DNA from: an uncultured Pseudomonadota bacterium
Lineage (GTDB): Bacteria; Desulfobacterota; Binatia; Binatales; Binataceae
Assembly (NCBI GenBank): GCA_937889395.1
Contig: CALAOW010000083.1
Coordinates: 1 to 61,711 of the forward strand
Direction: 5' to 3'
Length of the DNA: 61,711 nucleotides
Under the pieces are notes generated by a model. The model searched no databases and was not told the origin of the DNA. It saw only the letters and a program-made list of their open reading frames with translations. The translations under genes and the position numbers were made by a program. This document shows positions 2 to 52,943 of this stretch, piece after piece (the stretch's first letter is position 1; each line of letters starts with the position of its first letter).

Positions 2-1210
2 GTCGCCAAGGGCTGGTGGGACGGATTCGATCAGCCAGTCACGCCCCGTGCGATGCTCGTGTCAGGGTCGAATCCGCTGCGTCGCCATCGCGGCGGCATG
101 AATACCTATTTCAAGACTCTGTGGCCGAAGCTCGAAACGATCGTGGTTTTCGATCCCCGCTGGAGCACGACCGGTCTTTACGCGGATTATGTATTGCCGT
201 CTGCGTCCTACTACGAGTATGCGGACGTCAAGTATTCGACCCCCGACACCAGGTTGCTGTGCTTCACCGACCAGTCGGTGCCGATGCAGGGTGAGTCCCG
301 ATCGGACCGCCAGATTGCCCTCGGCGTGTTGAAAAGCGTCGCGAAGCACCTCAAGGCCCGTGGCATCGAAAAGTACGCGTCGGGCGATCGCGAGGTCATC
401 GTCGATGACCTGTACTGGCGGGCCACTTACGGCGACCGCTACGGCGACACCAACGCCGACGAAGAGCGCATGGTCGATGACTGCCTGCATGCCCTCGGCG
501 AAATGGGCTGGCTTACGACCCTCGATGGCGAGGACCTTAGCCTCGCCAACATGCGCAAGAACGGCAAGGCTTGGCTGAGCGGGCGCCCGCCCTGGCACGG
601 GATGGTGTGCCAGAGCACGGATATGGTCCCGCGCCAGGTTCATGTGCCGATGAGAGACCAGGTGGAAATGAAGGTCCCGTACGCGACCACCACCCGGCGC
701 ATCGCGTTCTACATCGATCACCCGTACTTCATCGAGGCGGACGAGGCCCTCGTCCTCTGTAAGCGGCCTCCCGACATCGGCGGTCACCAGCCGTGCCGGA
801 TAACCGGCGGTCACGTCCGATGGAGCATCCACGCCAATTGGCATACTTCGCTCGAAATGATGAAGCTGCATCGCGGCGAGCCGTTCGCGTTCGTCAATAA
901 TACTGCCGCGCGCAAAAAGGCCATCGAGGACAATGACTTCATTCGCGTTTACAATGACTACGGCTCCTTCATAACTCGCGCGAAGCTGTCCGCCTGCGTG
1001 CGGCCGGATCAGTTGGTCATCTACCATGCCTGGGAGCCGTATCAGCATCCCAACGGCATGCCCGCAGACGGCCTGATGCCTGGCCCGCCCAAAGGGCTCC
1101 ACTTTGCCGGTGGCTATCGGCATTTCGAGTACACGCTGTTTAGCTGGGCGCCGTCGCAGTCGGATCGCCAGACCAATATCGATTACGAGAAGGCTGAGTT
1201 TCAGGCATAA
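2..1210 (+). CDS. Molybdopterin oxidoreductase catalytic (alpha) subunit, C-terminal part, type II DMSO-reductase family (NarG/EbdA-like); 5' end lies outside the window
   Basis: The frame is open from nt 2, with no stop before the first Met at 53. It carries a C-terminal molybdopterin-dinucleotide-binding-type block (GGHVRWSIHANWH, RGEPFAFVN, IRVYNDYGSFITRAKLS, VRPDQLVIYHAWEP) and a NarG-like tail (GGYRHFEY...SDRQTNIDYEK). Confidence 0.75.
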   Translation, partial: VAKGWWDGFDQPVTPRAMLVSGSNPLRRHRGGMNTYFKTLWPKLETIVVFDPRWSTTGLYADYVLPSASYYEYADVKYSTPDTRLLCFTDQSVPMQGESRSDRQIALGVLKSVAKHLKARGIEKYASGDREVIVDDLYWRATYGDRYGDTNADEERMVDDCLHALGEMGWLTTLDGEDLSLANMRKNGKAWLSGRPPWHGMVCQSTDMVPRQVHVPMRDQVEMKVPYATTTRRIAFYIDHPYFIEADEALVLCKRPPDIGGHQPCRITGGHVRWSIHANWHTSLEMMKLHRGEPFAFVNNTAARKKAIEDNDFIRVYNDYGSFITRAKLSACVRPDQLVIYHAWEPYQHPNGMPADGLMPGPPKGLHFAGGYRHFEYTLFSWAPSQSDRQTNIDYEKAEFQA

Positions 1211-1212
1211 TC

Positions 1213-2445
1213 ATGTCCAAAGTCGGCGGTGCGTTGCCATCATGGTATTGGCCTGCAGGCATCCCGCGTCGAGTTCCGGTAGCACAGCAGCCGCTAGGCC
1301 GTCTGTTCCGGCAGCGATTCGCGACCATGAAAGACCGAATCGCGGTCGCGGACAAAAATGTCCGCATCAGTTACGGTGAACTACTCGAGCAAGGCCTGAG
1401 TCTCGCCGGCGGTATCCAGGCCGCCGGCCTCACCGGCACCATCGCGATCTCCGATCCTGATCCGGTCGAGAGTCTGCGCCTGTGCCTTGCCGGTTTGTTC
1501 GCCGGGCGCCGCATCTTGCTCGCAGATCCCGCAGCCTCCGCCGAGCAGCTCGCGGCCCGGCTTGCCGAGGGGAACGCTTCTGCCCTCATCACCTCAGATG
1601 GCGCCGGGCCTGCCCAGGCCGCGGGCGTCAGAATGGTCGCGAGGAGCGAACTGCAAGGAACATTCAGCGAAGCGGGAACAGCGATACGCGCGACGGAGCC
1701 CGCGCTACTGCTTCCGACCGGCCATGGGCTGGTCGCGCATTCACATTTCTCTGTGTCGGCGATGGCCGCCTCGATGGCCGCATTCATTCCCCGGCTGCGC
1801 GAGATCCCGTTTGTATGCACCGAACCTACGATCGGCTCTTGGGAGATGCTGACAGGTATTTTGCTGGCCATTTCACAGGGTAAGCCTGTTGTATTTGCCA
1901 GCCTCGAAGAGTTCGACACCGGCGAGTTGGCCGACCTCACCAATGGCGCCTATATGATTATTCAACGAAGCCAGGCCGACGCAATGTTGGCGGAAGGTCG
2001 GACGCCGCCGATGATTAGTCAGTCTGCTAATGTCTTCGTCTCGACCGGATCTTTCGCGCCGCGGTGGCGCCGCCGGATGGAAGCGCTATGTGGCCGGCCG
2101 ATCTTTCCGATCTGGGGACTGCCCGAGGTCGGCCCTCTGGTTTCCGCTCATCCGACATGGATTCCGCCGCATGGACACGGATTTCCGCTCGTCAATGTCT
2201 CTCTAATTCCGATCGATCCGAAAAGCGGCAAGGTTTCGATCGTGCCGTGGGAGATGCTCGTTCAGGCGGAGGTTGGCGTCGAGGCGCTGTCCGCGATGGT
2301 CGGCTACGTCGAGCCTGCCCGCAACGTCGGTCTCAAAATCGGCACCGCGGTGAGGACGCGCCAGGTCGCGTCGATGGATCATGTTGGCGTGGTTGCCCTG
2401 CAGGGCGCCCCGTTCGACGGCTATGGAGCCGCCGGTGGCAACTGA
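1213..2445 (+). CDS. Adenylate-forming (ANL) superfamily protein, degenerate, N-terminal domain only
   Basis: ATG lies 2 nt after the upstream stop. The layout is ANL-like (RISYGELLEQGLSLAGGIQAAG; WGLPEVGP in place of YGxTE). No [ST]SG[ST]TGxPK P-loop is visible (LLLPTGHGLVAHSH sits at that position), TGD is replaced by TRQ, and the ORF ends at the hinge with no C-terminal subdomain. Confidence 0.6.
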   Translation: MSKVGGALPSWYWPAGIPRRVPVAQQPLGRLFRQRFATMKDRIAVADKNVRISYGELLEQGLSLAGGIQAAGLTGTIAISDPDPVESLRLCLAGLFAGRRILLADPAASAEQLAARLAEGNASALITSDGAGPAQAAGVRMVARSELQGTFSEAGTAIRATEPALLLPTGHGLVAHSHFSVSAMAASMAAFIPRLREIPFVCTEPTIGSWEMLTGILLAISQGKPVVFASLEEFDTGELADLTNGAYMIIQRSQADAMLAEGRTPPMISQSANVFVSTGSFAPRWRRRMEALCGRPIFPIWGLPEVGPLVSAHPTWIPPHGHGFPLVNVSLIPIDPKSGKVSIVPWEMLVQAEVGVEALSAMVGYVEPARNVGLKIGTAVRTRQVASMDHVGVVALQGAPFDGYGAAGGN

Positions 2446-3127
2446 AAATCCATATCTGTTGTTCGACGTTCCCGGCGGCCGTCTTGCCTTCGGCGACGGA
2501 GACCTCGACATCTGGGCGGAACATCTCGCCTGGTGTTACCGGATGATGGGCATCCCGGACGGTGCAACGATCGCGGTTCAGGACTTCGGCAGCAGTCCCA
2601 TATCGTTTCTCGGCTCGAGTCTGCTGATGCCGGGCCTTCAACGCGGAGTCGCCGAACGTATCGATGGCCGCTTCATTTGCCTCGACGCTTCCGCAGAGCG
2701 CGTGACGCTCACGCCGGCTCTGCTGGCGCAACTGGCCGTCGACGCGCTCATCATCAGAGAAGACGTGCTCGTGCTGCTTTCCGCGCAGCTGCACAAAAAG
2801 GGACTTGCAGAGCTCGCACAGCGCACGATGAAAACAATTGTGGTGTTCGGCGACGAGCCTCCCGCCCTCAATCCGGTCCGCCTGCCGCCGTCGCGCCATC
2901 TTATGCACATCGAAAACGCCCTTCTGCTCGCACCCCAGTGCGTCAAGTGCGAGTGCTTCCACCTCCGCGAAGGATTCTACGAAGTTGACGGACGGATGAT
3001 TCGCAACCTCCGGCTGGCCGCGCCGACCTACGACCTGCCGCGCGGCGAACTGTTCTCGCCTTCGCACTGTGCCGCGGGCATCCGCGACTGGTGTATCGGC
3101 TGGTCACCTCGCGGACAAGGTATTTGA
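2423..3127 (+). CDS. Hypothetical protein with weak PaaK-like (adenylate-forming) resemblance and no P-loop
   Basis: ATG at 2423 (MEPPVATENPY) overlaps the upstream stop by 23 nt. LLAPQCVKCECFHLREGFYEVDG resembles the PaaK 'EC...G.H..ED' segment. The start is uncertain, since the track ORF begins at 2381. Confidence 0.55.
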   Translation: MEPPVATENPYLLFDVPGGRLAFGDGDLDIWAEHLAWCYRMMGIPDGATIAVQDFGSSPISFLGSSLLMPGLQRGVAERIDGRFICLDASAERVTLTPALLAQLAVDALIIREDVLVLLSAQLHKKGLAELAQRTMKTIVVFGDEPPALNPVRLPPSRHLMHIENALLLAPQCVKCECFHLREGFYEVDGRMIRNLRLAAPTYDLPRGELFSPSHCAAGIRDWCIGWSPRGQGI

Positions 3128-3133
3128 TCGGCG

Positions 3134-4426
3134 ATGCGTGACACTACTTCGAGCTGCGCGCGAAACGATGCCATCGAGACCCTTTCGGGTGCGCAATTGA
3201 CTGCCTGGCAGACCGACCGTCTGCGCGAGGTCGCCAACCACGCTTACCTCGAGGTTCCATTCTACCGCGAACTGTGGGACCGGGCTGGCGTCGAACCGGG
3301 GCTGCTTCGTTCGCTCGAAGATTTCGCCCGCTTCCCTACGATTTCCAAGCATGACCTCGTACAAGCTGGCCGCTTTTGGACAAACCCCCATCAGGGCTCC
3401 GTCGCATTCAGTACGCGCGGCACTTCAGGCGCTCCTCTCCTCGTATGGCTGAGCGCGGAGGAAGAGGAAGCATACATTCAGCCGACGATGCGCGGCTTTC
3501 GTTGGGCGGGATTCCGCTCCGGGATGACTGCCCTGTTGATGAGCCCGGTATGGCACCGTCTCGCCGCCTGCGAGGCGCACGCAATCGCACGCTTGGGCGG
3601 CCGCTGCGCGTTTTTCTGGGGAAGCATGGGATCCGAGTACACCGACTCCTTCCTTCATACGCTGTCCTCGGCGCGACCGGAATTCATCACGACCACCGCG
3701 CCGTTTCTGCTCTCCCTGGTTCGAGGGAGCACCGGCGCCACGATTCGGCCGCACGACCTTTTCAAGGGAGTACGCTCGGTCGTCGTCGTGGGTTTGCCGC
3801 TCACGCCGCGCATGCGCGAGTTCCTTCGCGACCGCCTCGAAGTCGAGGATGTCTTCGAACGCGGTGGAACGCAGGAAGGAGCTGCAATTGACGAATGCCG
3901 ATTCCATTCCGCTCCCCACGTGCACGAGGACGTCTGCTACCTCGAAGTCATCGACGATGCTGGCATTCACGTCGCGCCCGGTGTCCGCGGACGTCTGATC
4001 GTTACCAAGCTCACCACTACCGGGAGCACCTTCGTGCGTTACGACACTGAAGACATTGCCGCATTCGCACCCGGCGACTGCCCGTGCGGTTCTGGTTTTC
4101 GCAGACTGAGGATTTACGGACGTCCCGAGAGCAGCGTGCTCGTCGGCGACCGGCTAATCACCGCCTACGACGTCCGGATGTGCATCGAGGAAGACCCCGC
4201 TCTGGTGGGCCGCAACGTGTTGCTGATCCGCGAGGCCAACGCGCAGGCCGGCGTCCTGACCGTCGCCGTCGAAGGTGAGGCGCACGACTCGGCCAACTTG
4301 CAGGCGCGCCTGCGCGAGCAACTCGGGGTCGCCAGCGCCGACATCGTCTGGCTCGGCGACCTCAGAGTCAACTGGGGTTTCCGCCAGGTGCTCGACGGTC
4401 GCGAGATACGACTCCCCAGGAACTGA
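3134..4426 (+). CDS. Phenylacetate-CoA ligase (PaaK) / coenzyme F390 synthetase-like adenylating enzyme
   Basis: PaaK-type N-terminus (FYRELWDRAGVEP...LEDFARFPTISKHDL), a P-loop-like STRGTSGAPLLVW, and a GGTQEGAAIDEC...HVHEDVCYLEVID block. Confidence 0.75.
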   Translation: MRDTTSSCARNDAIETLSGAQLTAWQTDRLREVANHAYLEVPFYRELWDRAGVEPGLLRSLEDFARFPTISKHDLVQAGRFWTNPHQGSVAFSTRGTSGAPLLVWLSAEEEEAYIQPTMRGFRWAGFRSGMTALLMSPVWHRLAACEAHAIARLGGRCAFFWGSMGSEYTDSFLHTLSSARPEFITTTAPFLLSLVRGSTGATIRPHDLFKGVRSVVVVGLPLTPRMREFLRDRLEVEDVFERGGTQEGAAIDECRFHSAPHVHEDVCYLEVIDDAGIHVAPGVRGRLIVTKLTTTGSTFVRYDTEDIAAFAPGDCPCGSGFRRLRIYGRPESSVLVGDRLITAYDVRMCIEEDPALVGRNVLLIREANAQAGVLTVAVEGEAHDSANLQARLREQLGVASADIVWLGDLRVNWGFRQVLDGREIRLPRN

Positions 4427-5541
4427 TGGAGGCGCCGATGAAACTGATGCTCCCGACCAATTGGGATCCCGAACTCATCGCGCAAATTGCGCCGTTCAAG
4501 CCCGATTACATTTACGGAAGCCTGCCGAGCGAGGCTACGCTCCGCTCGTCACAGGTGCTGTCCGACGCGAGCGAAGACGATATAGCGCGCCATGTTTCAC
4601 AAGCCTCGCAGCACGGCATTCGTCTCGTTTACGTCATGAACGCCACCTGTCTGGGAAACAAGGAATACTCGGAAGAAGGCCGTGGTCAGCTGTTGCAGCG
4701 TCTCCAGTGGCTTGTCGATATCGGGGCGGCGGCTGTCGTCACGGCCAATCCGTTCGTGATGGAGCTGATGCGCGAGAATTTTCCCGCTCTCGAGCTGCAC
4801 ATTTCGGTACTCGCATCGGTCAATGACGCCCGCAAGGCAAAATTCTTCGACGACTTGGGCGCCACCGTCATTCATCTCGATCCCCAGGTTAATCGCGACT
4901 TCCGCCATATCGAGGCCATACGCAAGGCGGTCGGATGCCGTCTCTCGCTGGTGGTCAACGAGGGATGCCTGCTGAGCTGTCCCATCCGCCAGTATCACTC
5001 CAATATGATTTCCCATTCGGGCGAAAGTATCACCAGCCGATACTACGTGGACTACTGTTACTACCGCTGCTCGCTTATCAAGCTCAACGACGCCGCCGAG
5101 CATCTTCGCTCGCCATGGATCAGACCCGAGGATCTCGCCATCTACGAAAACTTGGGGATCGACCTGTTCAAGGTTGCCGGCCGTGAAAAGATGGAAGAGG
5201 GACCAAGCTCGCACACCGATTGGATCGCCATGGTCGCCAATGCGTATCACTCGAGGCACTGCGAGGACATCGCCCGCCTCCTCGTCGGCATCCAGCCGCC
5301 TCACAAGCTCTTCGGCGAGGCGCCTGAGCCGTTGGCCGTCCGAATCGACAGTGCGGAGCTCGATGGCTTCCTGCGCTTCTTCCAGGACGACCATTGTTCG
5401 CTCGATTGCGACCAGTGTGACTATTGCGGGAATTGGGCGCGGCGTGCCGTCCACGTCAGCGGCAGGCCGACGGAATGCGCGCAGGCGCTCGCAGACGACG
5501 TGCAAACCATTCGAGTCGGAAGTTATCGGAGTGGCAGGTGA
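4426..5541 (+). CDS. Peptidase U32-family protein (UbiU/UbiV/TrhP-type fold) with a Cys-rich C-terminus
   Basis: ATG overlaps the upstream TGA (TGATG at 4424-4428). U32-like N-terminus (KLMLPTNWDPELI...DYIYGSL) and core (VVNEGCLLSCPIRQYH). C-terminal cysteines (CSLDCDQCDYCGNW) are compatible with an Fe-S site. Confidence 0.6.
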   Translation: MEAPMKLMLPTNWDPELIAQIAPFKPDYIYGSLPSEATLRSSQVLSDASEDDIARHVSQASQHGIRLVYVMNATCLGNKEYSEEGRGQLLQRLQWLVDIGAAAVVTANPFVMELMRENFPALELHISVLASVNDARKAKFFDDLGATVIHLDPQVNRDFRHIEAIRKAVGCRLSLVVNEGCLLSCPIRQYHSNMISHSGESITSRYYVDYCYYRCSLIKLNDAAEHLRSPWIRPEDLAIYENLGIDLFKVAGREKMEEGPSSHTDWIAMVANAYHSRHCEDIARLLVGIQPPHKLFGEAPEPLAVRIDSAELDGFLRFFQDDHCSLDCDQCDYCGNWARRAVHVSGRPTECAQALADDVQTIRVGSYRSGR

Positions 5542-6080
5542 ACCAAGCAACTCAATCTCTCGACCTACAAATTCTGGCTGGGATCCATATGCTTTTCGCG
5601 GCCGTGTTCGTCGGCTCCAATATATTTCTGGATTTCCTTTTGACTCCGCGCCTCGATCTGATTCCGCCCGGACAGGCGGCGCGGCTCGGCGACAAGCTCG
5701 GCACCGACTTCGCCTGGCTGAACTGGATGGCCCTGGTGGGATCCCCGCTGAGCGGACTCCTGCTGCTGTGGCGATTGGGCAATTTGCCGTCGTTGCTCGA
5801 CCCGAGTTTCCTCTTCAGCGGTTACGGTGTCGCCCTGCTGTGCATGATTACGCTCTGGTTTACCTTGATAATAACCGCCTCAATCCTGACCTTCTACCTG
5901 CGCCCGCGCGTCGTAGTGAAACTTCCCTACGATGCCACGCGTCAGCAGGTCGAGGGCTCTCGTACCGACGCTATGAACTATGCGGACTGGATGAAGACTC
6001 TGGCGCGTTACAACGTATACGCGTCGTGCCTCATAATAGTCATAGGCGGTTTTCTGCGCTTCGGAGGTTTTCCATTCTGA
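5538..6080 (+). CDS. Integral membrane protein (about 4 TM helices), function unknown
   Basis: GTG at 5538 overlaps the U32 stop (GTGA at 5538-5541), in the same frame as track ORF 5424..6080. Hydrophobic segments include MLFAAVFVGSNIFLDFLL, WMALVGSPLSGLLLLW, GVALLCMITLWFTLIITASILTFYL and ASCLIIVIGGFL. An alternative ATG start lies in the same frame about 50 nt downstream (MLFAAVF). Confidence 0.6.
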   Translation: MNQATQSLDLQILAGIHMLFAAVFVGSNIFLDFLLTPRLDLIPPGQAARLGDKLGTDFAWLNWMALVGSPLSGLLLLWRLGNLPSLLDPSFLFSGYGVALLCMITLWFTLIITASILTFYLRPRVVVKLPYDATRQQVEGSRTDAMNYADWMKTLARYNVYASCLIIVIGGFLRFGGFPF

Positions 6081-6130
6081 GATGCTGACAGCGAGGCCAC
6101 AAACCGCAGCTCTCTTGATCGGCGCGCCGT

Positions 6131-7180
6131 TTGCGCGGCGCATTGGATAGACGACCCGTGCAATCAGATAACGAAAGCGCAACCGTCCGAACTCAGGCGT
6201 CACAGCTACGCGACCGGTTCGGGCGCACCATGAAGAAACTGCGCATCTCGCTGACTGATCGCTGCAACTTCCGTTGCGTTTACTGCATGCCGGAGTGTCC
6301 GGTCTGGGGCCCCAGGGAAGTAGTCCTCAGCCTCGAGGAACTCCATCATCTGGCTGCCGTTTTCGTAGCTCGCTTCGGACTTGAGCAGATACGCCTGACC
6401 GGTGGCGAGCCTCTCTTGCGCAGCGGTGCGCCCCGATTCGTGTCCATGCTCCAAAGCCTCCGGGCCTCCGGCCTTCGGCGCGTCTCGCTCTCGACCAACG
6501 GCGCCCTGCTGGCGCGGTACGCGCGGGAACTCGCCGAGTCAGGCCTCGACGGCGCCAACGTCAGCCTCGATTCGCTGTCTCCCGCCCGATTTCACCAAAT
6601 CACCGGCGGCGGCAACCTGCCCGAGGTTCTGCGTGGGATCGAGAGTGCGCGTGAGGCCGGACTACCGGTAAAACTCAACGCCGTGGTGATGCGCGGGACC
6701 AATGACACCGAAGTTCCAGCGCTCGCTGCCTGGGCATACCGCGCCGACATCCCTCTGCGCTTTATCGAGTTCATGCCTCTGGACAGTCGCGGCCTTTGGA
6801 GTCCCGATAAGGTCTTCACCGAGCGCGAGATCGTCGCGCTCCTGGCGCGGGATTTCGAGGTCAAGCCGCTTCCGCGTACTGACGAACCGGCGAGCTACTA
6901 TCTCCTGAACGGACACTTCCGCCTCGGTGTAATTTCGACAATCTCCAATGCCTTCTGCGCGCGATGCGATCGCATCCGGCTCACTGCCGATGGAAGGCTG
7001 TTCTCGTGCTTGTTCTCGCCCACAGGCATCGACCTCAAGAGCGCGCTGCGCCCCACGGTCAATCCGGATTTGCTTGAATCGCGGATAGAAGCGGCGATCC
7101 TGAATAAGTCCCCCGGCTTCGTCGACCGTTCCGCGTCAATGGATCGCGCGAATGTAGGAATGCACGTGCTCGGGGGCTGA
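6131..7180 (+). CDS. moaA: GTP 3',8-cyclase MoaA (radical SAM, molybdenum cofactor biosynthesis)
   Basis: LRDRFGRTMKKLRISLTDRCNFRCVYCMP (CxxxCxxC), a second cluster motif FCARCDRIRLTADGRLFSCLF, and a C-terminal GG. The start is uncertain: TTG at 6131, or GTG/ATG further downstream. Confidence 0.9.
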   Translation: MRGALDRRPVQSDNESATVRTQASQLRDRFGRTMKKLRISLTDRCNFRCVYCMPECPVWGPREVVLSLEELHHLAAVFVARFGLEQIRLTGGEPLLRSGAPRFVSMLQSLRASGLRRVSLSTNGALLARYARELAESGLDGANVSLDSLSPARFHQITGGGNLPEVLRGIESAREAGLPVKLNAVVMRGTNDTEVPALAAWAYRADIPLRFIEFMPLDSRGLWSPDKVFTEREIVALLARDFEVKPLPRTDEPASYYLLNGHFRLGVISTISNAFCARCDRIRLTADGRLFSCLFSPTGIDLKSALRPTVNPDLLESRIEAAILNKSPGFVDRSASMDRANVGMHVLGG

Positions 7181-7212
7181 ATGCAGTGCGGATCGGATAC
7201 CCTATATACAGA

Positions 7213-8520
7213 ATGAACAGACCCAATGACGCACCGCACACGCTCGTTCGACTGATTGCGATCGTGATGCTGGCGCTCTTGACCCAACTCACCGCGCCGA
7301 ACTCTGCCGCGGCCCAGGTGCGGCCCGGGGACATCATCACCGACCGCAACGCGTACAAAGCAAGGGAGCTGGTGTCGCCCGGAGTTTATCTCAGGATAAC
7401 CCGCGGGATGAGCATGCAGATCGTGCCAAGCGAACGCATCGAATGGCCTCCGCCGTATCGCGAGGCCACCGAGAAATATTCCTCGCAGGTCCGGCTTTCC
7501 AATGACCATAGGAGCCTGGTGGGATACGTAGCGGGACTGCCCTTCCCGTTCATCGATCCGAACGATCCCACTGCCGGGACGAAGCTGATGTGGAACGACA
7601 CGTTTCGGCCCACTTCCACCGACGATTATGATGCGCGCGACTTCAGCTGCATCAGCGAGTACGATGGGTTGAATCGCCCGTACGTTCCAATCAACTACTA
7701 CGAGTTCGGTCATCTGGCCAGTTACAACCTCGTCGGCCGCACCGAGGTCGAGCCGATGCCCACCGACCCCGATTTCCTGACCAGCGGGCGGCTTTTGCTG
7801 ATCGGCTTCTATCCATTTCTGGCGCCGCAAGAGGACCGTGGCCGTGGCTTCGTCCGCTATCGATATGCCGATCCTCTCAAGGGTGACGACACTTGGGGAT
7901 GGAGCCCCGGGAATCGACGAGTCAGGAGGCTTGGCGAGGCGTTCCTGGGATCCTCGGCCGGTGCGATTACATGGTCACTCGACAATTTTCAGGGGTTCGC
8001 CGCCAAGAATGAAAACTACAACTGGCGCCTCCTGGGCGAGAAATCCATGCTTGCTTCCATAGCCGCCGCTCACGTGCCGGAAGTAACCTGCCCGACCGAC
8101 GGCGGCGCCAGCGCATGTCCCGAGCGTTGGCAATTACGCCGGATGTACATCGTCGAGGGGCAAGCACGGCGCGACCGGGTTCCCGAGGAACTGTTCGGAC
8201 GCCATGTCATGTACCTGGATGCCGAGGCGGAATCCATAATGTACCAGGATTTCTACAATCGCGCCGGTGAACTCTGGAAGAACTACATAAGCTGGATGGC
8301 TTATCGCGATCGCGCCGTACCGGACGCGCGCATCGCGATTTACCCATTCAAACGCGTATTCCAGGTCGGCGCGAGCATCGATGATCTGACCGCCGGATTC
8401 GCCTCGATGTGTTACCTCCCCGCACAGGACACCACCGAGCGCGAGTCCTGGTACATCAACATGGGTGCGGTGGACAAGAGTTTCTTCACCGTCAAGGCGC
8501 TCGCGGCAGCCGCGCCGTAA
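7213..8520 (+). CDS. DUF1329-family secreted protein (LolA-like outer-membrane lipoprotein-sorting fold family)
   Basis: Signal peptide MNRPNDAPHTLVRLIAIVMLALLTQLTAPNSAAAQ. DUF1329-like blocks GYVAGLPFPFIDPNDP..GTKLMWN, YNLVGRTE and WSPGNRRVRRL. An alternative GTG start exists at 7186. Confidence 0.65.
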   Translation: MNRPNDAPHTLVRLIAIVMLALLTQLTAPNSAAAQVRPGDIITDRNAYKARELVSPGVYLRITRGMSMQIVPSERIEWPPPYREATEKYSSQVRLSNDHRSLVGYVAGLPFPFIDPNDPTAGTKLMWNDTFRPTSTDDYDARDFSCISEYDGLNRPYVPINYYEFGHLASYNLVGRTEVEPMPTDPDFLTSGRLLLIGFYPFLAPQEDRGRGFVRYRYADPLKGDDTWGWSPGNRRVRRLGEAFLGSSAGAITWSLDNFQGFAAKNENYNWRLLGEKSMLASIAAAHVPEVTCPTDGGASACPERWQLRRMYIVEGQARRDRVPEELFGRHVMYLDAEAESIMYQDFYNRAGELWKNYISWMAYRDRAVPDARIAIYPFKRVFQVGASIDDLTAGFASMCYLPAQDTTERESWYINMGAVDKSFFTVKALAAAAP

Positions 8521-8539
8521 TCTGCGCGAGGGGAGCCCG

Positions 8540-8989
8540 ATGTTCAGGCGCTTCGACTTCGAAAAGGACCTGTACGAGACGCTCGAGTTTATGCCGCTGT
8601 CGGTACGGCGCAAACTGGACTTGGCTGGTGTGAAGCTCCATTTGAAAGAATGGCAGGCGCTTTCGCGGGTCGAGCGCATGGTGATCTGCCACTTCCCGGC
8701 CGCATCCCCGGAGGAACGCGACGTTCTGGCGGCCTTTCTGCGCGACGCGGTGAAGACACGCGCGGGAACCGATCTCGCGACCATGAAGCCCGCATCGCAC
8801 GACGCTGCGCCCGACGCCGGCCAAGTGCCGCCGGATGTTGCGCGGCTGATCGCCGAGCTTAAGCTGCCGGAGAAGCGCTGGTCGCTTCTCGATCCCGATG
8901 AACGCTTCGCGCTGGCAAAGATGGCGCGCGGCGGAGCCGATAAGTTTATGAGCGCATGGTCCGAGTTCGCGGACAAGCGGCGACCATAG
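8540..8989 (+). CDS. Nitrate reductase-associated protein family (function unknown)
   Basis: GAGGGGA RBS, then ATG at 8540. MFRRFDFEKDLYETLEFMPLSVRRKLDLAGVKLHLKEWQALS..ERMVICHFP matches my memory of the 'nitrate reductase associated' conserved hypothetical family. Confidence 0.6.
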   Translation: MFRRFDFEKDLYETLEFMPLSVRRKLDLAGVKLHLKEWQALSRVERMVICHFPAASPEERDVLAAFLRDAVKTRAGTDLATMKPASHDAAPDAGQVPPDVARLIAELKLPEKRWSLLDPDERFALAKMARGGADKFMSAWSEFADKRRP

Positions 8990-9030
8990 ATATTCTTGCC
9001 CGGCGCGGAAGGATAAACAGGAGAACTACG

Positions 9031-10239
9031 ATGATTCAATCAACTCACGAAGACGCTTCCTTCAAGCTGCTCGATCGCGCCATTGCCGGACATCGGCTCA
9101 GCGCCGGCGAGATACGCCGCCTCTACGATTTGCCCACAAACGATCTGGCGGCGGCGGCTCACGAATTACGCCTGCGCCGTGGCAACCCGGAGCTGGCGAC
9201 CTACTCCATCGGCGGGAATATCGATTACACGAACATCTGCGTCGTCGCGTGCAAATTTTGCGCGTTCTATCGTGCCAGGCACCAGGAGGGCGCCTTCACA
9301 CTCACGCTCGATGAAATCGCGGATCAGATGGACGAGCTCAAGCGAATCGGGGGGCGCGATGCTCTGCTTGAGGGCGGCATCAATCCCGACTTGCCATTTC
9401 AGTGGTATTTGGATCTGCTGCGGTTTCTCAAATCGCGCTATCCGGAAATCCACATTGATGCATTCAGCCCCGAGGAGATTCTCGGCCTGGAGAAGCTGAC
9501 CGGCCGCGATGCGTGGGATATTCTCTGCGAGCTGAAGGATGCCGGACTCGATGGCATGCCCGGCGCCGCGGCCGAGATCCTGGTTGACGAAGTGCGCGAA
9601 CGCACCGCACCGACGCGGATGAAGACCGGAGACTGGTTCCGAATCATCGACTCGGCCATGAAGGCCGGCCTGCACAATCCGTGGACAGGGATGGTCATCG
9701 GATTCGGCGAGACGCTGGAACAACGCGTTCAGCATCTGATCGCGCTGCGCGATCAACAGGATCGCGGATTAGAGCGTTACGGTTGCGGCTTTTCGGCGTA
9801 CAAGATATGGCCCGCACGCCTCGAGCATACTCGCCTGAACGGGACCACTCCTCCTGCCGATAATGATGCGGTCGTCAATGAGTACTTACGCGACGTGGCG
9901 GTCGCGCGACTTGCGCTCGACAACATCGAAAATCATCGCGCGGTCTGGCGCACGATGGGCTTCGAGGTCGCGGGCCGGGCGCTGCGCTCAGGAGCAAACG
10001 ATCTCTGCGGCACCGGGTCGATCAACGCGATTAACGCTTGCATCACGGCGGCCGGCAAGGATTTGCCCGACCCAACCGAGGCGATGATCCGTGACGTAGT
10101 GAAATGCATCGAAGCCGCCGGCTTCACTGCTGCGCTGCGCGATCCCTATTACAATATTCTTAAGCGCCACGAATCGACCAAATTGGAATCGACCAAATTG
10201 GAAGAATTGCCCGAATCAGCACTGGCTGCGGGAAAGTAA
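9031..10239 (+). CDS. Radical SAM protein of the MqnC/MqnE/CofH subfamily
   Basis: AGGAGA RBS, then ATG at 9031. NIDYTNICVVACKFCAFYR (CxxxCxxC), LLEGGINPDLP, IHIDAFSPEEI, AGLDGMPGAAAEILVDEVR, GMVIGFGET..RVQHLIALRDQQD. Confidence 0.8.
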   Translation: MIQSTHEDASFKLLDRAIAGHRLSAGEIRRLYDLPTNDLAAAAHELRLRRGNPELATYSIGGNIDYTNICVVACKFCAFYRARHQEGAFTLTLDEIADQMDELKRIGGRDALLEGGINPDLPFQWYLDLLRFLKSRYPEIHIDAFSPEEILGLEKLTGRDAWDILCELKDAGLDGMPGAAAEILVDEVRERTAPTRMKTGDWFRIIDSAMKAGLHNPWTGMVIGFGETLEQRVQHLIALRDQQDRGLERYGCGFSAYKIWPARLEHTRLNGTTPPADNDAVVNEYLRDVAVARLALDNIENHRAVWRTMGFEVAGRALRSGANDLCGTGSINAINACITAAGKDLPDPTEAMIRDVVKCIEAAGFTAALRDPYYNILKRHESTKLESTKLEELPESALAAGK

Positions 10240-10337: not shown

Positions 10338-11297
10338 GTGCCCGCAAAAGTCTGGATCGGTATCGATATCGGTGGCACCAAGACGGCGATCGTCGTCTCG
10401 GAACGGCTGCCCGAGGTTAGCGAGCGTCTCCAGTTCGCTACCATTCCCTCCAAGGGCCCCAACCGCGCGCTCGACCTGATAGTTAAGGGAATCGGCGCGC
10501 TCCTGAAGAGCCGCGGGCTTCCGCGCTCGGTAATCCGCGGCATCGGCATAAGCTGTGGCGGCCCGCTTGATCGATTGCGCGGGATTATCCATTCGCCGCC
10601 CAATCTTGCCACGTGGGTGGATGTTCCGGTCAAAGCAATCCTCGAGCGGCAATTCGGCGTTAGCTGCAACGTCGAGAATGACGCAAACGCCGGCGCCGTC
10701 GCCGAGCATCGCTACGGCGCGGGGCATGGATTCGACAACATGGTCTTCGTCACGATGGGCACGGGACTTGGCGCAGGAATCATCGTTGATGGGCAACTTT
10801 ACCGCGGCACTGACGATCTCGCCGGAGAGATTGGGCATGTGCGGCTCACCCGCGGCGGCCCTGTCGGACATAACAAGCGCGGTTCAGCCGAGGGATGGGC
10901 AAGCGGCGGCGGGATGGAGCAGGTAGCGATGCGAGCCGTCGAAGACGCGCGAATGCGCGGGCGCAGCACTATTCTGACGGCCCATCGCGGGACGCTCACG
11001 GCTCGCGACGTTTGCGCGGCTGCGAAGCGCGGCGATGCGGTCGCGATGCGAATCGTTCGTTCCACGGGCGAGCGGCTCGGCCAGGTGCTGGCGATTCTGG
11101 TAGACATCCTCAATCCGGAGCGGATTGTGATCGGCGGCCTGGCGATGCGCACGGACGAGATGATGCTGGGACCCGCACGCGCGGTGATGGCGCGCGAGGC
11201 CTTGCCCGCGTCTGCCGGGTCTTGCCAGGTGGTGCCGGCAGCCTTGGGCGAGCGTATCGGTGATGTTGCGGCGCTATGCGTCGCGATGGGACTCTAA
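10338..11297 (+). CDS. ROK-family protein (sugar kinase-like)
   Basis: GIDIGGTKTA, NDANAGAVAEHRYGAG and TMGTGLGAGIIVDGQLYRG..AGEIGH. The canonical ROK CxCGxxGCxE zinc motif is not evident. GTG start. Confidence 0.75.
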   Translation: MPAKVWIGIDIGGTKTAIVVSERLPEVSERLQFATIPSKGPNRALDLIVKGIGALLKSRGLPRSVIRGIGISCGGPLDRLRGIIHSPPNLATWVDVPVKAILERQFGVSCNVENDANAGAVAEHRYGAGHGFDNMVFVTMGTGLGAGIIVDGQLYRGTDDLAGEIGHVRLTRGGPVGHNKRGSAEGWASGGGMEQVAMRAVEDARMRGRSTILTAHRGTLTARDVCAAAKRGDAVAMRIVRSTGERLGQVLAILVDILNPERIVIGGLAMRTDEMMLGPARAVMAREALPASAGSCQVVPAALGERIGDVAALCVAMGL

Positions 11298-11313
11298 CCG
11301 GGAGGCACGCTTC

Positions 11314-14121
11314 ATGGACCAGCTTTATTTCGTCGTTCACACGCACTGGGATCGCGAGTGGTATCAGCCGTTTCAGCGGATGCGTGCGCGGCTGCTTACG
11401 ATGACGGACAAGATGCTTGCGCTTCTCGAAAGCGGAGCCCTCCCATGCTTTCACTTCGACGGCCAGACGATAGTGCTCGAGGATTACCTCGAAGTGCGGC
11501 CCGACAGTGCGCGCCGAATCGCGAAGCTGGTGAAGGCCGGCAAGCTCCAAATCGGTCCATGGTACCTCCTCGCGGACAGCTTTCTCGCCAGCGGCGAGGC
11601 GCTGATTCGCAATCTCGAGATCGGCAGCCGTATCGCGCGGCGATTCGGGAAGTCCGCACAGACCGGCTATTTGCCCGATCAATTCGGTCACGCCGCGCAG
11701 CTTCCACAGATTCTCTCGGGGTTCGGGCTCAAGGCGGCGGTCGTTTTCCGCGGCGTGGGACGCGAAGTGTATCGCAATCGATTCATCTGGGAAGCGCTCG
11801 ACGGCAGCTCACTGTTCACGATCTTTCTGCCGTTCGGCTATTTCAACGGCGCCGGTCTGCCGACCGACTCGGCTGATGCAATGATCGCGCGAGCGAACGA
11901 GATCGCCGCGCGGGAACGCGAGTTCTCTGCCGGCGCTCCGATCCTGGTGATGAACGGCATCGATCACGCGGAACCCGATCCGCTGGTATTCGAGCGCCTG
12001 AAGGAAGCAGCCGGACGCGCGCCATTCAATTCGGAAGTCGGCACGCTCGACGATTACGCGAAGCGGCTTGCCGAGCTTCCCCGGGACGGCACGCCTCGCG
12101 TCCGCGGTGAATTGCGATCTCCTGCCCGCTCGAATATCACGCCGGGCGTCAGCTCGACACGAGCCTGGATAAAGCAGCGTGACTTCCAAAACGCATATCT
12201 GCTCGAGCGGATTGCCGATCCGCTTGCCGCGCTCGCTTCTCGTTTGAATCAGGCCGACGACCTGACTGCGCTGCTCGAGGTTGCCTGGCGCATGCAGATT
12301 CAGAACCATCCGCACGACTCGATCTGCGGATGCTCGATCGACCAAGTCCATCAGGACATGCGCTACCGCTTCGATCAGGCCGCGATGATCGGCGAGATCG
12401 TGGCGCACCGCGCCGCGGATGCCGTGCTTTCAACACGAAACCGCGCCGAAGCCGCGATCGCGGTGTTCAATCCGACGTTCGCCCGCCGCGCGCTCATCAC
12501 GGGTGAAACCGACCTCGAGGATCCCCACGGATGCTACGTCGCGCTGGATAGCGACGGGCGCCGGATTCCCGTCGCGATCGATGTCGCGCGGCTGGCGCGG
12601 CCATTCGAAATCGAGCTGAAGGCGGCCGACCTCAAAGGTTTGATCACCGGCGCTCAGGTGATGGACCGGTACGTGAACCGGTTCGAACTCGAACGCGTCG
12701 GGGACAATCGATTCGATCTCCGTGTGTTCGCCAGCAGCAGCCCGGCGGCCGACCTGGACCCGGATAGCTTTCGCCGGCGAATTCTGGAGCTGCCTGACGA
12801 GGCGATCCTTCGGATCCAGGCTACGGAGGCCGCGCGGGCGCAAATCACCTTCGTTGACGACGCACTCACGCAGGCCGGCTTCAGCCTTTATCGGCTTGTT
12901 CACTCGGATGAACTCGCTACTAATACGCCGGCCAATGCGGCCGGAATCGAATCGATCGAGAACGAATACTTCAGGCTCAGCCCGTCGCCGCGCGGCCTGA
13001 AAATCGACGACCTGAAAAACAAAAAAGCCCTTGAAATTTATTTCGAAGATGACGGCGATCGCGGCGACGAATACAACTTCGACCCGGTGGCCGATTCGGC
13101 GCCGATCTCGAGGCCTGTATCGATCGCCGCCAGCGTGATCGAGCGCGGAACCGTGAGAAGTCGCATCGCCCTCTCGTCGGTTTACAGTTTCCCGTGCGCG
13201 CTCACGGAGGATCGCACGGCGCGCGCACCGCAGACCGTCGAGGTTCCGATACAACTGACGGCCACCATCTACGCGGGACTCGAGCGCGTGGATTTTGAGG
13301 CAGCGATAGATAATCGCGCGCGCGACCATCGCATCCGCGTCGCGCTATCCACGCCGATTGCGGCCTCGGAATCGCTCTCCGACACGAATTTCGGAATCGT
13401 CCGCCGCCCGCTCGATCCAACCGAGCCGGCGGGAGTCACGGAAGATGTCTATCCGACCGCGCCGCATCGGACGTTCACCGCGGTGGAATCCGCGGAGTTT
13501 TCGGCGGCCATGATGAGCCGTGGAATCTACGAGACCGAGTCCAGGCGAGACGGCGGCGGTACGACAATCTTGTTGACGCTCTTGCGATGCGTAGGATGGC
13601 TTTCGCGCGGAGACCTGAAGATGCGCCGCGGTGATGCCGGTCCGGAGTTCGAAACGCCCGACGCGCAGGAAATCGGCCAGCATCGTTTTCAATTTGCCAT
13701 CACGACCTGGCGCGGTTCGTATGCAGACTCCGGCGTCGTTCAGCTAAGCCAGGCGTATGCGTATCCGCCGCGGGTGTTCCAGGCTTGCTCCGCGGCAGAT
13801 GTGTCTGAGAATCGACTTTGCGCCTGCGACAATCCGCGAGTAGTGTTTTCCACCGCGCGCGCAACGGAACGCGTCGATGCCTGCATCGTACGCGCCTTCA
13901 GCGCTTCCGAGTCACCGGAGATCGCGCGATTCAACTTCGGCCACGGCCGGAGAGCTCGACTGATCGATCTCGCTGGCCGGCCTTTGAAAGGCGTCAAGCT
14001 CAAGCGGCGCCGCGACGGTTCCGTCGAGTTGAATCTGCGCCCCTTTCAGATCGTGACGTTCGAAGTTCGCTGGCCTATGGCGGATTCGCGCCGACCCTCT
14101 GCTAGCCCGCTTGCGGAATAA
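11314..14121 (+). CDS. Glycoside hydrolase family 38 (alpha-mannosidase / mannosylglycerate hydrolase-like)
   Basis: GGGAGG RBS, then ATG at 11314. N-terminal FVVHTHWDREWYQPFQ, GPWYLLADSFL.SGEALIRNL, YLPDQFGH. Confidence 0.85.
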   Translation: MDQLYFVVHTHWDREWYQPFQRMRARLLTMTDKMLALLESGALPCFHFDGQTIVLEDYLEVRPDSARRIAKLVKAGKLQIGPWYLLADSFLASGEALIRNLEIGSRIARRFGKSAQTGYLPDQFGHAAQLPQILSGFGLKAAVVFRGVGREVYRNRFIWEALDGSSLFTIFLPFGYFNGAGLPTDSADAMIARANEIAAREREFSAGAPILVMNGIDHAEPDPLVFERLKEAAGRAPFNSEVGTLDDYAKRLAELPRDGTPRVRGELRSPARSNITPGVSSTRAWIKQRDFQNAYLLERIADPLAALASRLNQADDLTALLEVAWRMQIQNHPHDSICGCSIDQVHQDMRYRFDQAAMIGEIVAHRAADAVLSTRNRAEAAIAVFNPTFARRALITGETDLEDPHGCYVALDSDGRRIPVAIDVARLARPFEIELKAADLKGLITGAQVMDRYVNRFELERVGDNRFDLRVFASSSPAADLDPDSFRRRILELPDEAILRIQATEAARAQITFVDDALTQAGFSLYRLVHSDELATNTPANAAGIESIENEYFRLSPSPRGLKIDDLKNKKALEIYFEDDGDRGDEYNFDPVADSAPISRPVSIAASVIERGTVRSRIALSSVYSFPCALTEDRTARAPQTVEVPIQLTATIYAGLERVDFEAAIDNRARDHRIRVALSTPIAASESLSDTNFGIVRRPLDPTEPAGVTEDVYPTAPHRTFTAVESAEFSAAMMSRGIYETESRRDGGGTTILLTLLRCVGWLSRGDLKMRRGDAGPEFETPDAQEIGQHRFQFAITTWRGSYADSGVVQLSQAYAYPPRVFQACSAADVSENRLCACDNPRVVFSTARATERVDACIVRAFSASESPEIARFNFGHGRRARLIDLAGRPLKGVKLKRRRDGSVELNLRPFQIVTFEVRWPMADSRRPSASPLAE

Positions 14122-16318: not shown

Positions 16319-16585
16319 TGGTGAATCTCCCTGTTCCGTGCGATTCGAAGCCCGGTCTGCTCGATCGCACGCAAGTGCCGTGCTCGTTCCTCTTTTAGCT
16401 TATAGCCCGGCCACGCGAGTTCGCCTAGACACGCGGCGCCATTTGAGTTATCCCGGAAAGAATCATTGCGGCGATTGGATACATCCCAACAAATGAAAAC
16501 TCTTCACTGAACGATCGTTCATTTCGGGCACAACCTATGCTACGTCTTGCCCGTCCCATTCAATACCACCGTCGAGGAGCAAGGA

Positions 16586-17851: not shown

Positions 17852-17957
17852 CGCCGCGTCGGGATAGCAAAGGAATCAACATGGCGCGTCTTCAGGGGCC
17901 AATCGATCGAGAGAAAGCGGGAATCAACATCGCCGCATCTGACAGGGAGAATCGAAA

Positions 17958-20522: not shown

Positions 20523-20609
20523 CGCGAAAATTTACTCCCAGTGGAAAAATAAAAAATGGACGCGGCTCTTTTCCGAGCTGCGCCCGCCGCACGCAATTCT
20601 AAGTCTCCA

Positions 20610-21221: not shown

Positions 21222-21310
21222 CTAAGTGACGCTATCTCTCAGCTTGGGACAAGCCCGAACGCTCCACAAGATTGCGTCAATGACGATGTTTCACAGCGAG
21301 ACGCGAAAAT

Positions 21311-28351: not shown

Positions 28352-28436
28352 TCGCTCCCCCTGCACGGGCTATTGTCTAGCGTCCCACGCGGCATAACGC
28401 GATAGCCGCCGCGCCAGCAAACAATCGAAGCTCCGC

Positions 28437-32588: not shown

Positions 32589-32621
32589 TTTGCATTTGCC
32601 GGCTGGGAGGAATCGCGCGCT

Positions 32622-52919: not shown

Positions 52920-52943
52920 TAACGCCGTAGCGATCGACGATCC

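Follow-up and report, generated by a model that had tools for sequence, protein, structure and literature searches.

Here we describe a ten-gene operon segment at the start of contig CALAOW010000083.1 (GenBank assembly GCA_937889395.1), from an uncultured bacterium of the Binataceae; the whole contig, 61,711 nucleotides (nt) long, was analysed and is called the window below. The segment occupies positions 2-10239 of the + strand and forms the downstream end of a 20-kb operon (approximate length) in a genome of Candidatus Binatus (Binatota). Its ten genes are a composite of four layers, namely a molybdenum (Mo) enzyme related to EbdA, a five-gene cassette containing a U32-family protein, a radical SAM companion and a set of lineage-specific helpers. 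Across phyla, gene order is conserved far more than chance would allow. We give a probability of roughly 40 % to the reading that the operon oxidizes, independently of O2 and in the cytoplasm, and then activates a hydrophobic substrate, probably of isoprenoid or alkyl-aromatic type. The main known route for hydroxylating unactivated C-H bonds with water runs through enzymes of the EbdA/S25DH type; a newly recognised, prephenate-dependent alternative is provided by U32 proteins. Binatota, in turn, are abundant in soils and sediments and are predicted hydrocarbon degraders.

Ten open reading frames (ORFs), co-directional and tightly spaced, fill the segment as read from the sequence and the ORF list. 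The first (2-1210) holds the C-terminal 402 codons of the alpha subunit of the Mo enzyme, the last of several tandem copies, and finds its best matches in TIGR03479 and EbdA. Its stop codon (TAA 1208-1210) stands 2 nt before the ATG at 1213 of g02 (1213-2445), which encodes a 410-residue protein with an ANL N-terminal domain. The ATG of g03 (2423-3127) lies within the g02 ORF, which ends at 2445, giving a 23-nt overlap; g03 encodes a truncated protein of about 230 residues with a predicted PaaK fold. After the g03 stop (TGA 3125-3127) and a 6-nt gap, ATG 3134 opens g04 (3134-4426), the gene of a full-length, 430-residue adenylating enzyme resembling PaaK and F390 synthetase. The junction with the next gene reads CTGATGG (TGATG at 4424-4428) and leads into g05 (4426-5541), which encodes a U32-family iron-sulphur (Fe-S) protein of 367-371 residues with a start perhaps at ATG 4438. 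A GTGA at 5538-5541 joins the U32 gene to g06 (5538-6080), which encodes a small, distantly CopD-like membrane protein of 163-180 residues. The gene for the GTP 3',8-cyclase MoaA (g07, 6131-7180) has an uncertain start within 6131-6230 and follows after 50 nt, if counted from TTG 6131, or after about 150 nt, if counted from ATG 6230. Gaps of 5 nt (7180/7186), 19 nt (8520/8540) and 41 nt (8989/9031) then introduce g08, encoding an exported DUF1329/LolA-like protein (7186-8520), g09, encoding a NarM-like 'nitrate-reductase-associated' protein (8540-8989), and g10, encoding a radical SAM enzyme of the MqnC/MqnE/CofH family (9031-10239).

The co-directional layout and operon-type junctions proposed in the original prediction, which had been made from the letters alone, are thus confirmed, its coordinates being reproduced from the sequence, and searches with Pfam and NCBIfam profiles reproduce each of its family assignments. 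Gene calls on sister contigs place the starts of g03, U32, g06 and DUF1329 somewhat later. With these starts the junctions of g03, U32 and DUF1329 still lie within about 35 nt, and a g06 call of 163 residues leaves a gap of about 47 nt after U32; other contigs have a 4-nt overlap between U32 and g06, which occurs in three lineages including L012 and L099 (compared loci are designated by L numbers). Scans for consensus promoters and terminators gave results at the level of shuffled or background sequence and were uninformative. An Rfam scan of the whole window returned no family, and the gap before moaA contains no Mo cofactor riboswitch.

The front of the operon, missing from the window, is visible on sister contigs (L001 and L011-L013). 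An identical g02 protein is present on 21 public contigs, and among the alpha homologues the closest carries the label Candidatus Binatus sp. and many more that of Binataceae; downstream of alpha, identity between L001 and the window exceeds 99 %. The upstream order begins with a CtmA-like flavoprotein (530 residues), an SCP2 protein (135), a CtmB-like flavoprotein (537) and an SCP2-like protein (157). These are followed by one beta Fe-S subunit (360 residues) and two to three tandem alpha subunits (952, 951 and 948 residues), after which g02 and the rest of the segment continue. The second and third alphas are 91 % identical to each other, and the first is 67-68 % identical to either. The alpha fragment in the window follows the third alpha of L001 except for about 200 nt that match the second (L001 1401-9998), and this mosaic of near-identical tandem copies accounts for the contig break at alpha. 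Either the tandem copies have undergone gene conversion or the assembly is chimeric here. Type II enzymes normally have beta, gamma and chaperone genes behind alpha, and the original prediction had noted that none follows here. This is true downstream; the beta gene, however, lies upstream of the window. A canonical set immediately upstream had been named as an observation that would count against a special system, and of that set only beta was found: no gamma (EbdC-type) or NarJ-type gene is present within 10 kb up- or downstream on any contig of this clade (L001, L011, L098, L099 and L101).

The alpha subunits are nevertheless recognisable members of the EbdA group. The domains that bind the molybdenum bis-pyranopterin guanine dinucleotide cofactor, PF00384 and PF01568, are present both in the window fragment and in the full-length copies. 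The FS0 motif H-x3-C-x4-C, which lies upstream of the window, reads HRVNCYPGSC in all three L001 alphas. EbdA (2ivf) is the best solved structure (E 9e-172 over 930 residues), and its Mo-ligand Asp223 aligns with the conserved Asp of an 'IGD' in the alphas. Scores remain below every relevant cut-off: 769 and 714 bits for alpha against 984.75 for the type II subfamily model TIGR03479, 592 against 2000 for the EbdA equivalog, and 312 against 480.7 (TIGR03478) for the EbdB-like beta. A twin-arginine translocation (Tat) motif is absent from nine alpha N-termini, taken from this clade (L001, three copies; L098, L099, L101 and L014) and from distant multi-alpha clusters. Tat-less relatives thus occur in Actinomycetota, in a metagenome-assembled genome (MAG) of Gammaproteobacteria, in a Sterolibacterium MAG and in the distant multi-alpha clusters. 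Since Tat signal, gamma subunit and NarJ chaperone are all lacking, the Mo enzyme is cytoplasmic, and its alphas form a separate branch within the EbdA/S25DH group, in which the beta gene comes first. The Joint Genome Institute (JGI) labels close alpha homologues 'steroid C-25 hydroxylase alpha'.

Both flavoproteins encoded upstream are nearest to CrtO-type enzymes among NCBIfam models and carry the motif G-F-L/R-x-N/S-T/L-H-A, as GFLHNVHA and GFWHNLHA, whose His binds flavin mononucleotide (FMN) covalently in the limonene dehydrogenase CtmAB and in delta24-steroid desaturase (PMC11061730). SCP2 genes adjoin beta in Binatus and also in Actinomycetota. The Sterolibacterium MAG (L014/L015, 8892-14093) encodes a Tat-less beta-alpha pair 61-63 % identical to the window enzyme, followed by a 246-residue multi-helix membrane protein without a Pfam family; the cassette is absent there. 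This pair may correspond to the uncharacterised eighth alpha paralogue ('DH8') of S. denitrificans.

To what extent the segment is a unit was assessed by aligning U32 homologues, scanning one genome per GTDB species, which returned 80 loci, and running tblastn with each operon protein. Loci were divided into those with close U32 relatives, at least 36 % identical to the window U32 (39 loci), and those with distant ones, below 36 % (41 loci). A g04 homologue accompanies 34 of the 39 close relatives and none of the 41 distant ones, and most of the 34 loci also carry g03, g02 and g06. The five exceptions are two loci where U32 is embedded among alphas (L031 and L033) and three short or end-of-contig loci. 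The U32 gene is thus the hub of a conserved neighbourhood. The full order beta-alpha(n)-g02-g03-g04-U32-g06 is found in Binataceae-type MAGs (L020, L025 and L027), in the Gammaproteobacteria MAG (L023, identical to L099), in Actinomycetota (L026, and L028, identical to L098) and on an unassigned JGI contig (L101). By comparison, MoaA, DUF1329 and, sometimes, NarM-like genes stand in this order between g06 and g10 only in Binataceae-type ('delta proteobacterium') MAGs; elsewhere DUF1329 and NarM matches are scattered or weak and confined to a few loci. The combination that the original prediction singled out is therefore real and recurs outside this genome. Its ten genes are not conserved as one unit: MoaA, DUF1329 and NarM are lineage-specific, and g02-g06 also occur without the Mo enzyme.

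The five cassette proteins have an unusual anatomy. The g02 protein scores 54 bits with Pfam AMP-binding (cut-off 29.9); it consists of an ANL N-terminal domain without the C-terminal one, and in an alignment of eight orthologues its P-loop is degenerate, reading 'LPTGHG..H.H' in place of TSGTTGxPKG. For g03 there is no Pfam or NCBIfam family, and phmmer against PDB sequences gave no match. Its AlphaFold2 model (pLDDT 85) matches the N-domains of PaaK1 and of the BT_0428 acyl-CoA ligase in Foldseek (E 2e-7, TM 0.62-0.66). The protein is of half length, has an altered P-loop (D-F-G-S-S-P) and lacks a C-terminal domain, and the family is small, numbering 65 clusters (50 % identity) in a set of 1.84 billion representatives; a tblastn search of plasmids found no g03 homologue and, for U32, just a 30 % match in Bacillus. 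Matches of g04 to NCBIfam models all lie below cut-off (DVU_1553 family 8e-30, PaaK 4e-28, F390 synthetase 6e-24; PaaK model 98 bits against 646), as does its Pfam score (28.5 against 29.9). Its P-loop residues G96, T97 and G99 are invariant, within TRGTSG(A/E)P in group 1, to which the window belongs, and SSGTSGT in group 2, the more distant cassette group, whose U32 is 36-41 % identical to that of the window. C255, H262, C316 and C318 are likewise invariant. The A10 lysine is present in group 2 (W/F-K-G) and replaced in group 1 (WGFRQV). In both groups g02 has been kept as a neighbour of g03 and g04.

That g02, g03 and g04 are three adenylate-forming paralogues, as first proposed, holds at the level of the fold, for g03 of the predicted fold. 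Paralogy is not detectable by pairwise BLAST, which gave nothing significant, or by hhalign of g03 against g04 and g02 (probabilities of about 1 % or less), and the P-loops of g02 and g03 are degenerate. Judged by its motifs, g04 alone looks catalytically equipped, yet it is atypical. A natural fusion, the 610-residue protein P0375, joins a g03-like domain (E 4e-15) to a full g04-like enzyme (35 % identity, E 2e-61), which argues that g03 and g04 act as one complex. Other g03 relatives, of 305-340 residues, look like PaaK N-domains with an altered 'D-Y-G-T-S-P' loop.

The U32 protein scores 52.7 bits with PF01136 (cut-off 22.4), and its profile matches its sole solved relative, the Methanopyrus U32 domain 5d88, with E 1.7e-23. 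It has invariant C181, C185 and C215 and, in addition, a C-terminal C324-x3-C-x2-C-x2-C334 motif. Subfamily models fit weakly (TrhP 30 bits against 534; UbiU 25.7 against 440, E 5.5e-6). The g06 protein falls just below the Pfam CopD cut-off (30.4 bits against 32.1) and has one invariant histidine (H17) and an invariant IPP motif; a single-sequence AlphaFold2 model of it was poor (pLDDT 57, pTM 0.33). Distant U32 proteins (30-35 % identity; L055-L095) occur in Syntrophaceae, Thermodesulfobacteriota, Omnitrophota, Armatimonadota and some archaea. In 24 of these loci the gene is followed by one for a radical SAM protein of about 480 residues resembling the B12-binding type; ABC-transporter and LUD/CCG-like genes are often close by. 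We judge this pairing to be a different system from the cassette.

The cassette changes partners. In group 2, found in Binataceae-type MAGs, Myxococcota, Acidimicrobiia, Actinomycetota and Dehalococcoidia, g02, g04, g03 and g06 are usually divergent from U32, and no alpha or beta lies within 10 kb. Its neighbours in the Binataceae-type MAGs are genes for an SCPx-type thiolase, an aldehyde dehydrogenase, two CoA-transferase subunits and two nitroreductase-family proteins; in L022 these neighbours stand together with a group-1 cassette and g10. A Rhodobacter-like lineage (L102, 4386-12951; L052, 211-8780) has, in the position of beta and alpha, genes for a GMC oxidoreductase and for a 'gluconate 2-dehydrogenase subunit 3' protein. 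The latter lacks its usual Tat motif, and there is no cytochrome c subunit; in L052, g02 and U32 are apparently split by frameshifts. In L100 a permuted cassette adjoins a CtmA/CtmB-like pair. A second CopD-like gene directly precedes beta in L101, where two acyl-CoA dehydrogenase genes and a porin gene follow. A 3.66-Mb Binataceae-type contig (L021; 1578-4817, - strand) carries the cassette with MoaA, DUF1329 and g10 and no adjacent alpha or beta, divergent from genes for a cytochrome b and two multihaem cytochromes c, and alpha homologues are encoded elsewhere on this contig. Regulators of the TetR and GntR families, acyl-CoA dehydrogenases and a porin are also encoded near the cassette, which in L036 and L030 stands among housekeeping genes. 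Because it also partners GMC and CtmAB flavoproteins, the cassette is not specific to Mo enzymes.

The U32 subfamily is also found without the cassette. A Deltaproteobacteria MAG (L031), an unassigned JGI metagenome contig (L096) and a Zixibacteria MAG (L097) have a U32 gene of this subfamily inside clusters with one beta, one type II chaperone and five to six Tat-less alpha paralogues. Genes for small YHS proteins are interspersed and, in L096, there is a UbiD enzyme; no ANL genes lie nearby and no gamma subunit or membrane anchor is visible in these clusters. The type II chaperone is confined to distant clusters of the L096 and L097 type and is not found in the clade of the window.

Among the genes behind the cassette, moaA encodes a protein that passes the TIGR02666 cut-off (336.4 bits against 284.05) and that contains PF04055 and PF06463 (Mob_synth_C). 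Orthologues at this position, 60-73 % identical, occur only in Binataceae-type MAG loci. The DUF1329 protein (PF07044, E 1.5e-42) has a signal-like hydrophobic stretch at the N-terminus of its translation. Its orthologues (70-90 % identity) follow the cassette only in Binataceae-type MAGs, and more distant copies (24-53 %) lie near it in a small number of other MAG loci, of delta type and of Myxococcota. The NarM-like protein scores 104 bits with PF09655 (cut-off 25) and 93.7 with TIGR02664 (110), and its only relatives at other loci are in L016 and, more distantly, in L048.

The radical SAM enzyme g10 contains a CxxxCxxC motif, a Radical_SAM domain and CofH_C, and scores below cut-off with all its family models: MqnC 317.6 (428.1), TIGR00423 252.6 (260.25) and MqnE 237 (434.55). 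It is 30-36 % identical to both the bona fide MqnE and the bona fide MqnC of L099, which are 40 % identical to each other, and it therefore represents a third branch of the family. Orthologues (50-72 % identity) follow the cassette in Binataceae-type MAGs, in Actinomycetota and in the Rhodobacter-like lineage. The window contains no MqnA, MqnB or MqnD gene, in agreement with the earlier remark that g10 has no other mqn partner nearby. The Gammaproteobacteria MAG, which has no g10 orthologue, carries four Mqn-type genes instead, beginning 39 nt after g06: MqnE (446.6 bits; cut-off 434.55), VitK2_biosynth, MqnC (453.8; 428.1) and a second VitK2_biosynth. As no other cassette locus has VitK2_biosynth genes, this mqn set belongs to a single lineage. 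It is unlikely to be accidental that one enzyme family occupies the same position after the cassette in both situations.

How might these parts work together? In the scheme to which we assign a probability of about 40 %, flavoproteins and Mo enzymes would oxidize allylic, benzylic or tertiary C-H bonds with water, the lipid being carried by SCP2 and the exported DUF1329 protein. A complex of g03 and g04, perhaps with g02, would then perform an ATP-dependent activation, forming an acyl-adenylate or a coenzyme A (CoA) thioester; alternatively, F390 synthetase and the Sterolibacterium kinase/lyase cascade being possible analogues, it might adenylylate a hydroxyl group. The membrane-tethered U32 protein would add a further O2-independent hydroxylation of the prephenate type, and the product would enter beta-oxidation-type enzymes encoded nearby. 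Provision and insertion of the Mo cofactor would fall to MoaA and the NarM-like protein, which would thereby replace a NarJ chaperone.

Support for this scheme comes from the Tat-less Mo enzyme, with EbdA as its best solved relative, and from links to O2-independent isoprenoid oxidation, namely the covalent-FMN motif of the upstream flavoproteins, SCP2 beside beta, the 'steroid C-25 hydroxylase alpha' labels and the several alphas with one beta, as in Sterolibacterium denitrificans (PMC6016249). An activating complex is favoured by the intact P-loop of g04, the PaaK fold predicted for g03 and the fusion of the two in P0375, and cofactor supply by the MoaA score. Further support lies in the catabolic character of the neighbours, with SCPx-type thiolase, aldehyde dehydrogenase, CoA-transferases, nitroreductase-like proteins, acyl-CoA dehydrogenases and TetR/GntR regulators around cassettes. 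In the window itself, 14549-19184 and 31038-34951 encode an acyl-CoA dehydrogenase, an SCPx-type thiolase, two enoyl-CoA hydratases and a standard, full-length AMP-dependent (CoA) ligase. The same downstream stretch has, on the - strand, a thiamine pyrophosphate enzyme resembling acetolactate synthase and 2-hydroxyacyl-CoA lyase, with scores below cut-offs. One of the two routes offered in the original prediction, an anaerobic activation or hydroxylation of a hydrophobic or aromatic acid, thus stands as far as the neighbourhood is concerned, given the CtmAB-like pair, SCP2, the acyl-CoA dehydrogenases, thiolase, CoA-transferases, aldehyde dehydrogenase and regulators. The scheme accounts for the neighbours and the regulators. 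It does not account for g10, for the degenerate ANL subunits or for the position of U32 as a 'shared subunit', and several observations weigh against it. The MqnC/MqnE-like g10 is a constant companion of group 1 without an obvious catabolic role, and the Gammaproteobacteria MAG has a complete MqnE-MqnA/D-MqnC-MqnD/A set where g10 would stand. An ordinary CoA ligase is doubtful, since two of the three ANL P-loops are degenerate and group-1 g04 lacks the A10 lysine. The single U32 among five to six alphas would suit a shared accessory subunit better, and two cassettes lie among housekeeping genes. Finally, the CoA-transferase and thiolase neighbours are not independent observations, because they come mostly from related 'delta proteobacterium'/Binataceae-type MAGs.

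In a somewhat less likely alternative, the cassette would join with SCP2 and the MqnC/MqnE-like radical SAM enzyme in making or tailoring a membrane carrier of quinone type, or in forming an electron exit to the membrane. The two-cysteine-cluster U32 protein would then dock on the small membrane protein, and its users would be the Mo, GMC and CtmAB enzymes, all cytoplasmic and devoid of cytochromes. Isoprenoid-quinone biosynthesis has an ANL ligase in MenE, radical SAM enzymes in MqnC and MqnE, U32 proteins in UbiU and UbiV and an SCP2 protein in UbiT, so that each family associated with the cassette has a precedent there. The partners of the cassette are, moreover, interchangeable dehydrogenases that are normally periplasmic and cytochrome-linked, and here they lack both Tat signal and cytochrome. 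The MqnE and MqnC of L099, both above equivalog cut-offs and flanked by two VitK2_biosynth genes, start just behind the cassette; a CopD-like gene stands before beta in L101; the cassette of L021 adjoins cytochrome b and multihaem cytochrome c genes. The U32 position in L031, L096 and L097 and the isolated cassettes of L036 and L030 point the same way. PMC10990095 describes the oxidant and electron acceptor of U32 hydroxylases as unknown, and PMC11061730 does likewise for delta24-steroid desaturase. Several points, on the other hand, speak against a carrier. Canonical mqnA/D genes adjoin the cassette in one lineage only, and no prenyltransferase, methyltransferase or decarboxylase gene was seen beside it. 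No electron-transfer subunits are known among U32 proteins, it is difficult to imagine what three ANL-like proteins would do in electron transfer, and the catabolic neighbours recur. Binatota, furthermore, already encode menaquinone biosynthesis according to a bioRxiv survey (10.1101/2020.09.14.296780).

An unlikely reading gives the genes behind alpha the task of maturing the Mo enzyme or of making a special Mo cofactor for it, which was the second route of the original prediction. It would explain the MoaA above its equivalog cut-off, the NarM-like protein, the lack of a NarJ-type chaperone in a clade whose distant multi-alpha relatives have one, and the U32 genes within Mo-enzyme clusters (L031, L096 and L097). 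MoaA and NarM, however, accompany the cassette only in Binataceae-type MAGs. Actinomycetota and the Gammaproteobacteria MAG have Mo enzyme and cassette without them, and elsewhere the cassette goes with GMC or CtmAB, or stands alone, with no Mo enzyme within 10 kb. As such Mo-free loci exist, a maturation role for the whole block is contradicted, and the idea fits MoaA and NarM only. Very improbable, lastly, is a chance succession of separate operons without common function: MoaA, DUF1329 and NarM are indeed lineage-specific insertions, the widest gap, of 50-150 nt in front of MoaA, falls at the edge of the cassette and the ROK and GH38 genes that follow g10 look unrelated, but mere adjacency is contradicted by the conservation statistics (34/39 against 0/41 loci), by the recurrence of beta-alpha-g02-g03-g04-U32-g06(-g10) with short gaps in Binataceae-type MAGs, the Gammaproteobacteria MAG, Actinomycetota and the JGI contig, by the 4-nt overlap of U32 and g06 in three lineages and by the g03-g04 fusion.

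The domain superfamilies involved are all known, as is the theme of O2-independent hydroxylation of hydrophobic compounds. What we found described nowhere are the Tat-less, beta-first alpha clade, its linkage to U32, the five-gene cassette including a family without a Pfam model, and the third-branch Mqn-like enzyme. Literature searches returned no paper in which U32 proteins are connected with EbdA-type enzymes or with the futalosine pathway, and nothing relevant on DVU_1553 or on Binatota with Mo enzymes. The original prediction had not recognised the combination as any described operon, and no publication describing it was found; there is a realistic chance that the cassette itself is categorically new.

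The genetic link across phyla between EbdA/S25DH-type and U32 enzymes, in a Tat-less and cytochrome-less setting, points to an unstudied cytoplasmic, O2-independent oxidation of hydrocarbons or isoprenoids. Such a pathway may matter for lipid and hydrocarbon turnover at low O2. The analysis also defines a compact cassette, with a protein family that has no Pfam model, that is open to expression and testing, and offers a handle on the electron acceptors of U32- and CtmAB-type enzymes and on uncharacterised U32 subfamilies. If the cassette does serve a membrane carrier, U32 proteins would have a role beyond the hydroxylation of rings and nucleobases, and the electron acceptor of this enzyme class would be identified.

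Other genes of the window stand apart from these subjects. A ROK-family kinase gene and a GH38 alpha-mannosidase-like gene (10338-14121), whose ORFs overlap by 38 nt, begin 98 nt after g10; the pair is present on all sister contigs and is not part of the conserved neighbourhood elsewhere. Long ORFs at 25742-28366 (- strand), 52326-53666 (- strand) and 20556-21317 (+ strand), of 873, 445 and 253 residues, match no Pfam family at E <= 1e-5, and some of them may be shadow ORFs, the sequence being high in GC.

Compared with known systems, the operon resembles in its outline the sterol-degrading machinery of Sterolibacterium denitrificans, where several alpha paralogues have shared accessory subunits (PMC6016249). 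With its S25DH/S26DH and delta24-steroid desaturase the window operon has in common an EbdA-clade alpha with beta, multiple alphas sharing accessory subunits and an adjoining CtmAB-like flavoprotein pair with the covalent-FMN His motif. By analogy, an ATP-dependent step and a water-dependent hydroxylation of a lipid side chain may be shared as well. As characterised, S25DH and S26DH carry a Tat signal and work in the periplasm as alpha-beta-gamma complexes that contain haem b and depend on a chaperone, SdhD (PMC7411048, PMC6016249), whereas in the window operon beta precedes alpha and Tat signal, gamma and chaperone are missing. Its putative ATP-dependent partner is ANL/PaaK-like rather than a kinase and lyase, and the U32, CopD-like and MqnC-like proteins have no counterpart in the Sterolibacterium system. 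With EbdABC the operon shares the FS0 motif, the Asp223 position of the Mo ligand and an EbdB-like beta, while it differs in lacking a Tat signal, EbdC and EbdD and in scoring below the EbdA and type II cut-offs.

As in the O2-independent hydroxylation of ubiquinone by UbiU, UbiV and UbiT (PMC10990095), the U32 protein of the window operon is encoded with SCP2 proteins and, by analogy, would act on a hydrophobic substrate without O2 and require an electron acceptor. It is a single protein and not a pair, however, with an additional C-terminal CX3CX2CX2C and weak similarity to UbiU, and its gene is coupled to those of a membrane protein and three ANL-like proteins, with no ubi genes nearby. The g10 protein has the radical SAM core and CofH_C of MqnC, MqnE and CofH, with MqnC as its best model, and in L099 MqnE and MqnC are found at the equivalent position; unlike MqnC and MqnE, it lies below all equivalog cut-offs, and MqnA, MqnB and MqnD have no place in the window. 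The limonene dehydrogenase CtmAB of Castellaniella defragrans, as cited in PMC11061730, corresponds to the CrtO/CtmAB-like pair upstream in Binatus and beside the cassette in L100. No Ctm ferredoxin or reductase genes were seen here, and the pair is instead linked to a Mo enzyme and a U32 cassette. Finally, g04 aligns over its whole length with the PaaK and F390 synthetase models, and the predicted model of g03 superposes on the N-domains of PaaK1 and BT_0428. They differ from PaaK and F390 synthetase in their sub-cut-off scores, in the half length of g03 and in a group-1 g04 that has exchanged the A10 lysine and carries a conserved set of Cys and His residues; and where PaaK and F390 synthetase are the precedents, g02, g03 and g04 appear to work as a multi-subunit set.

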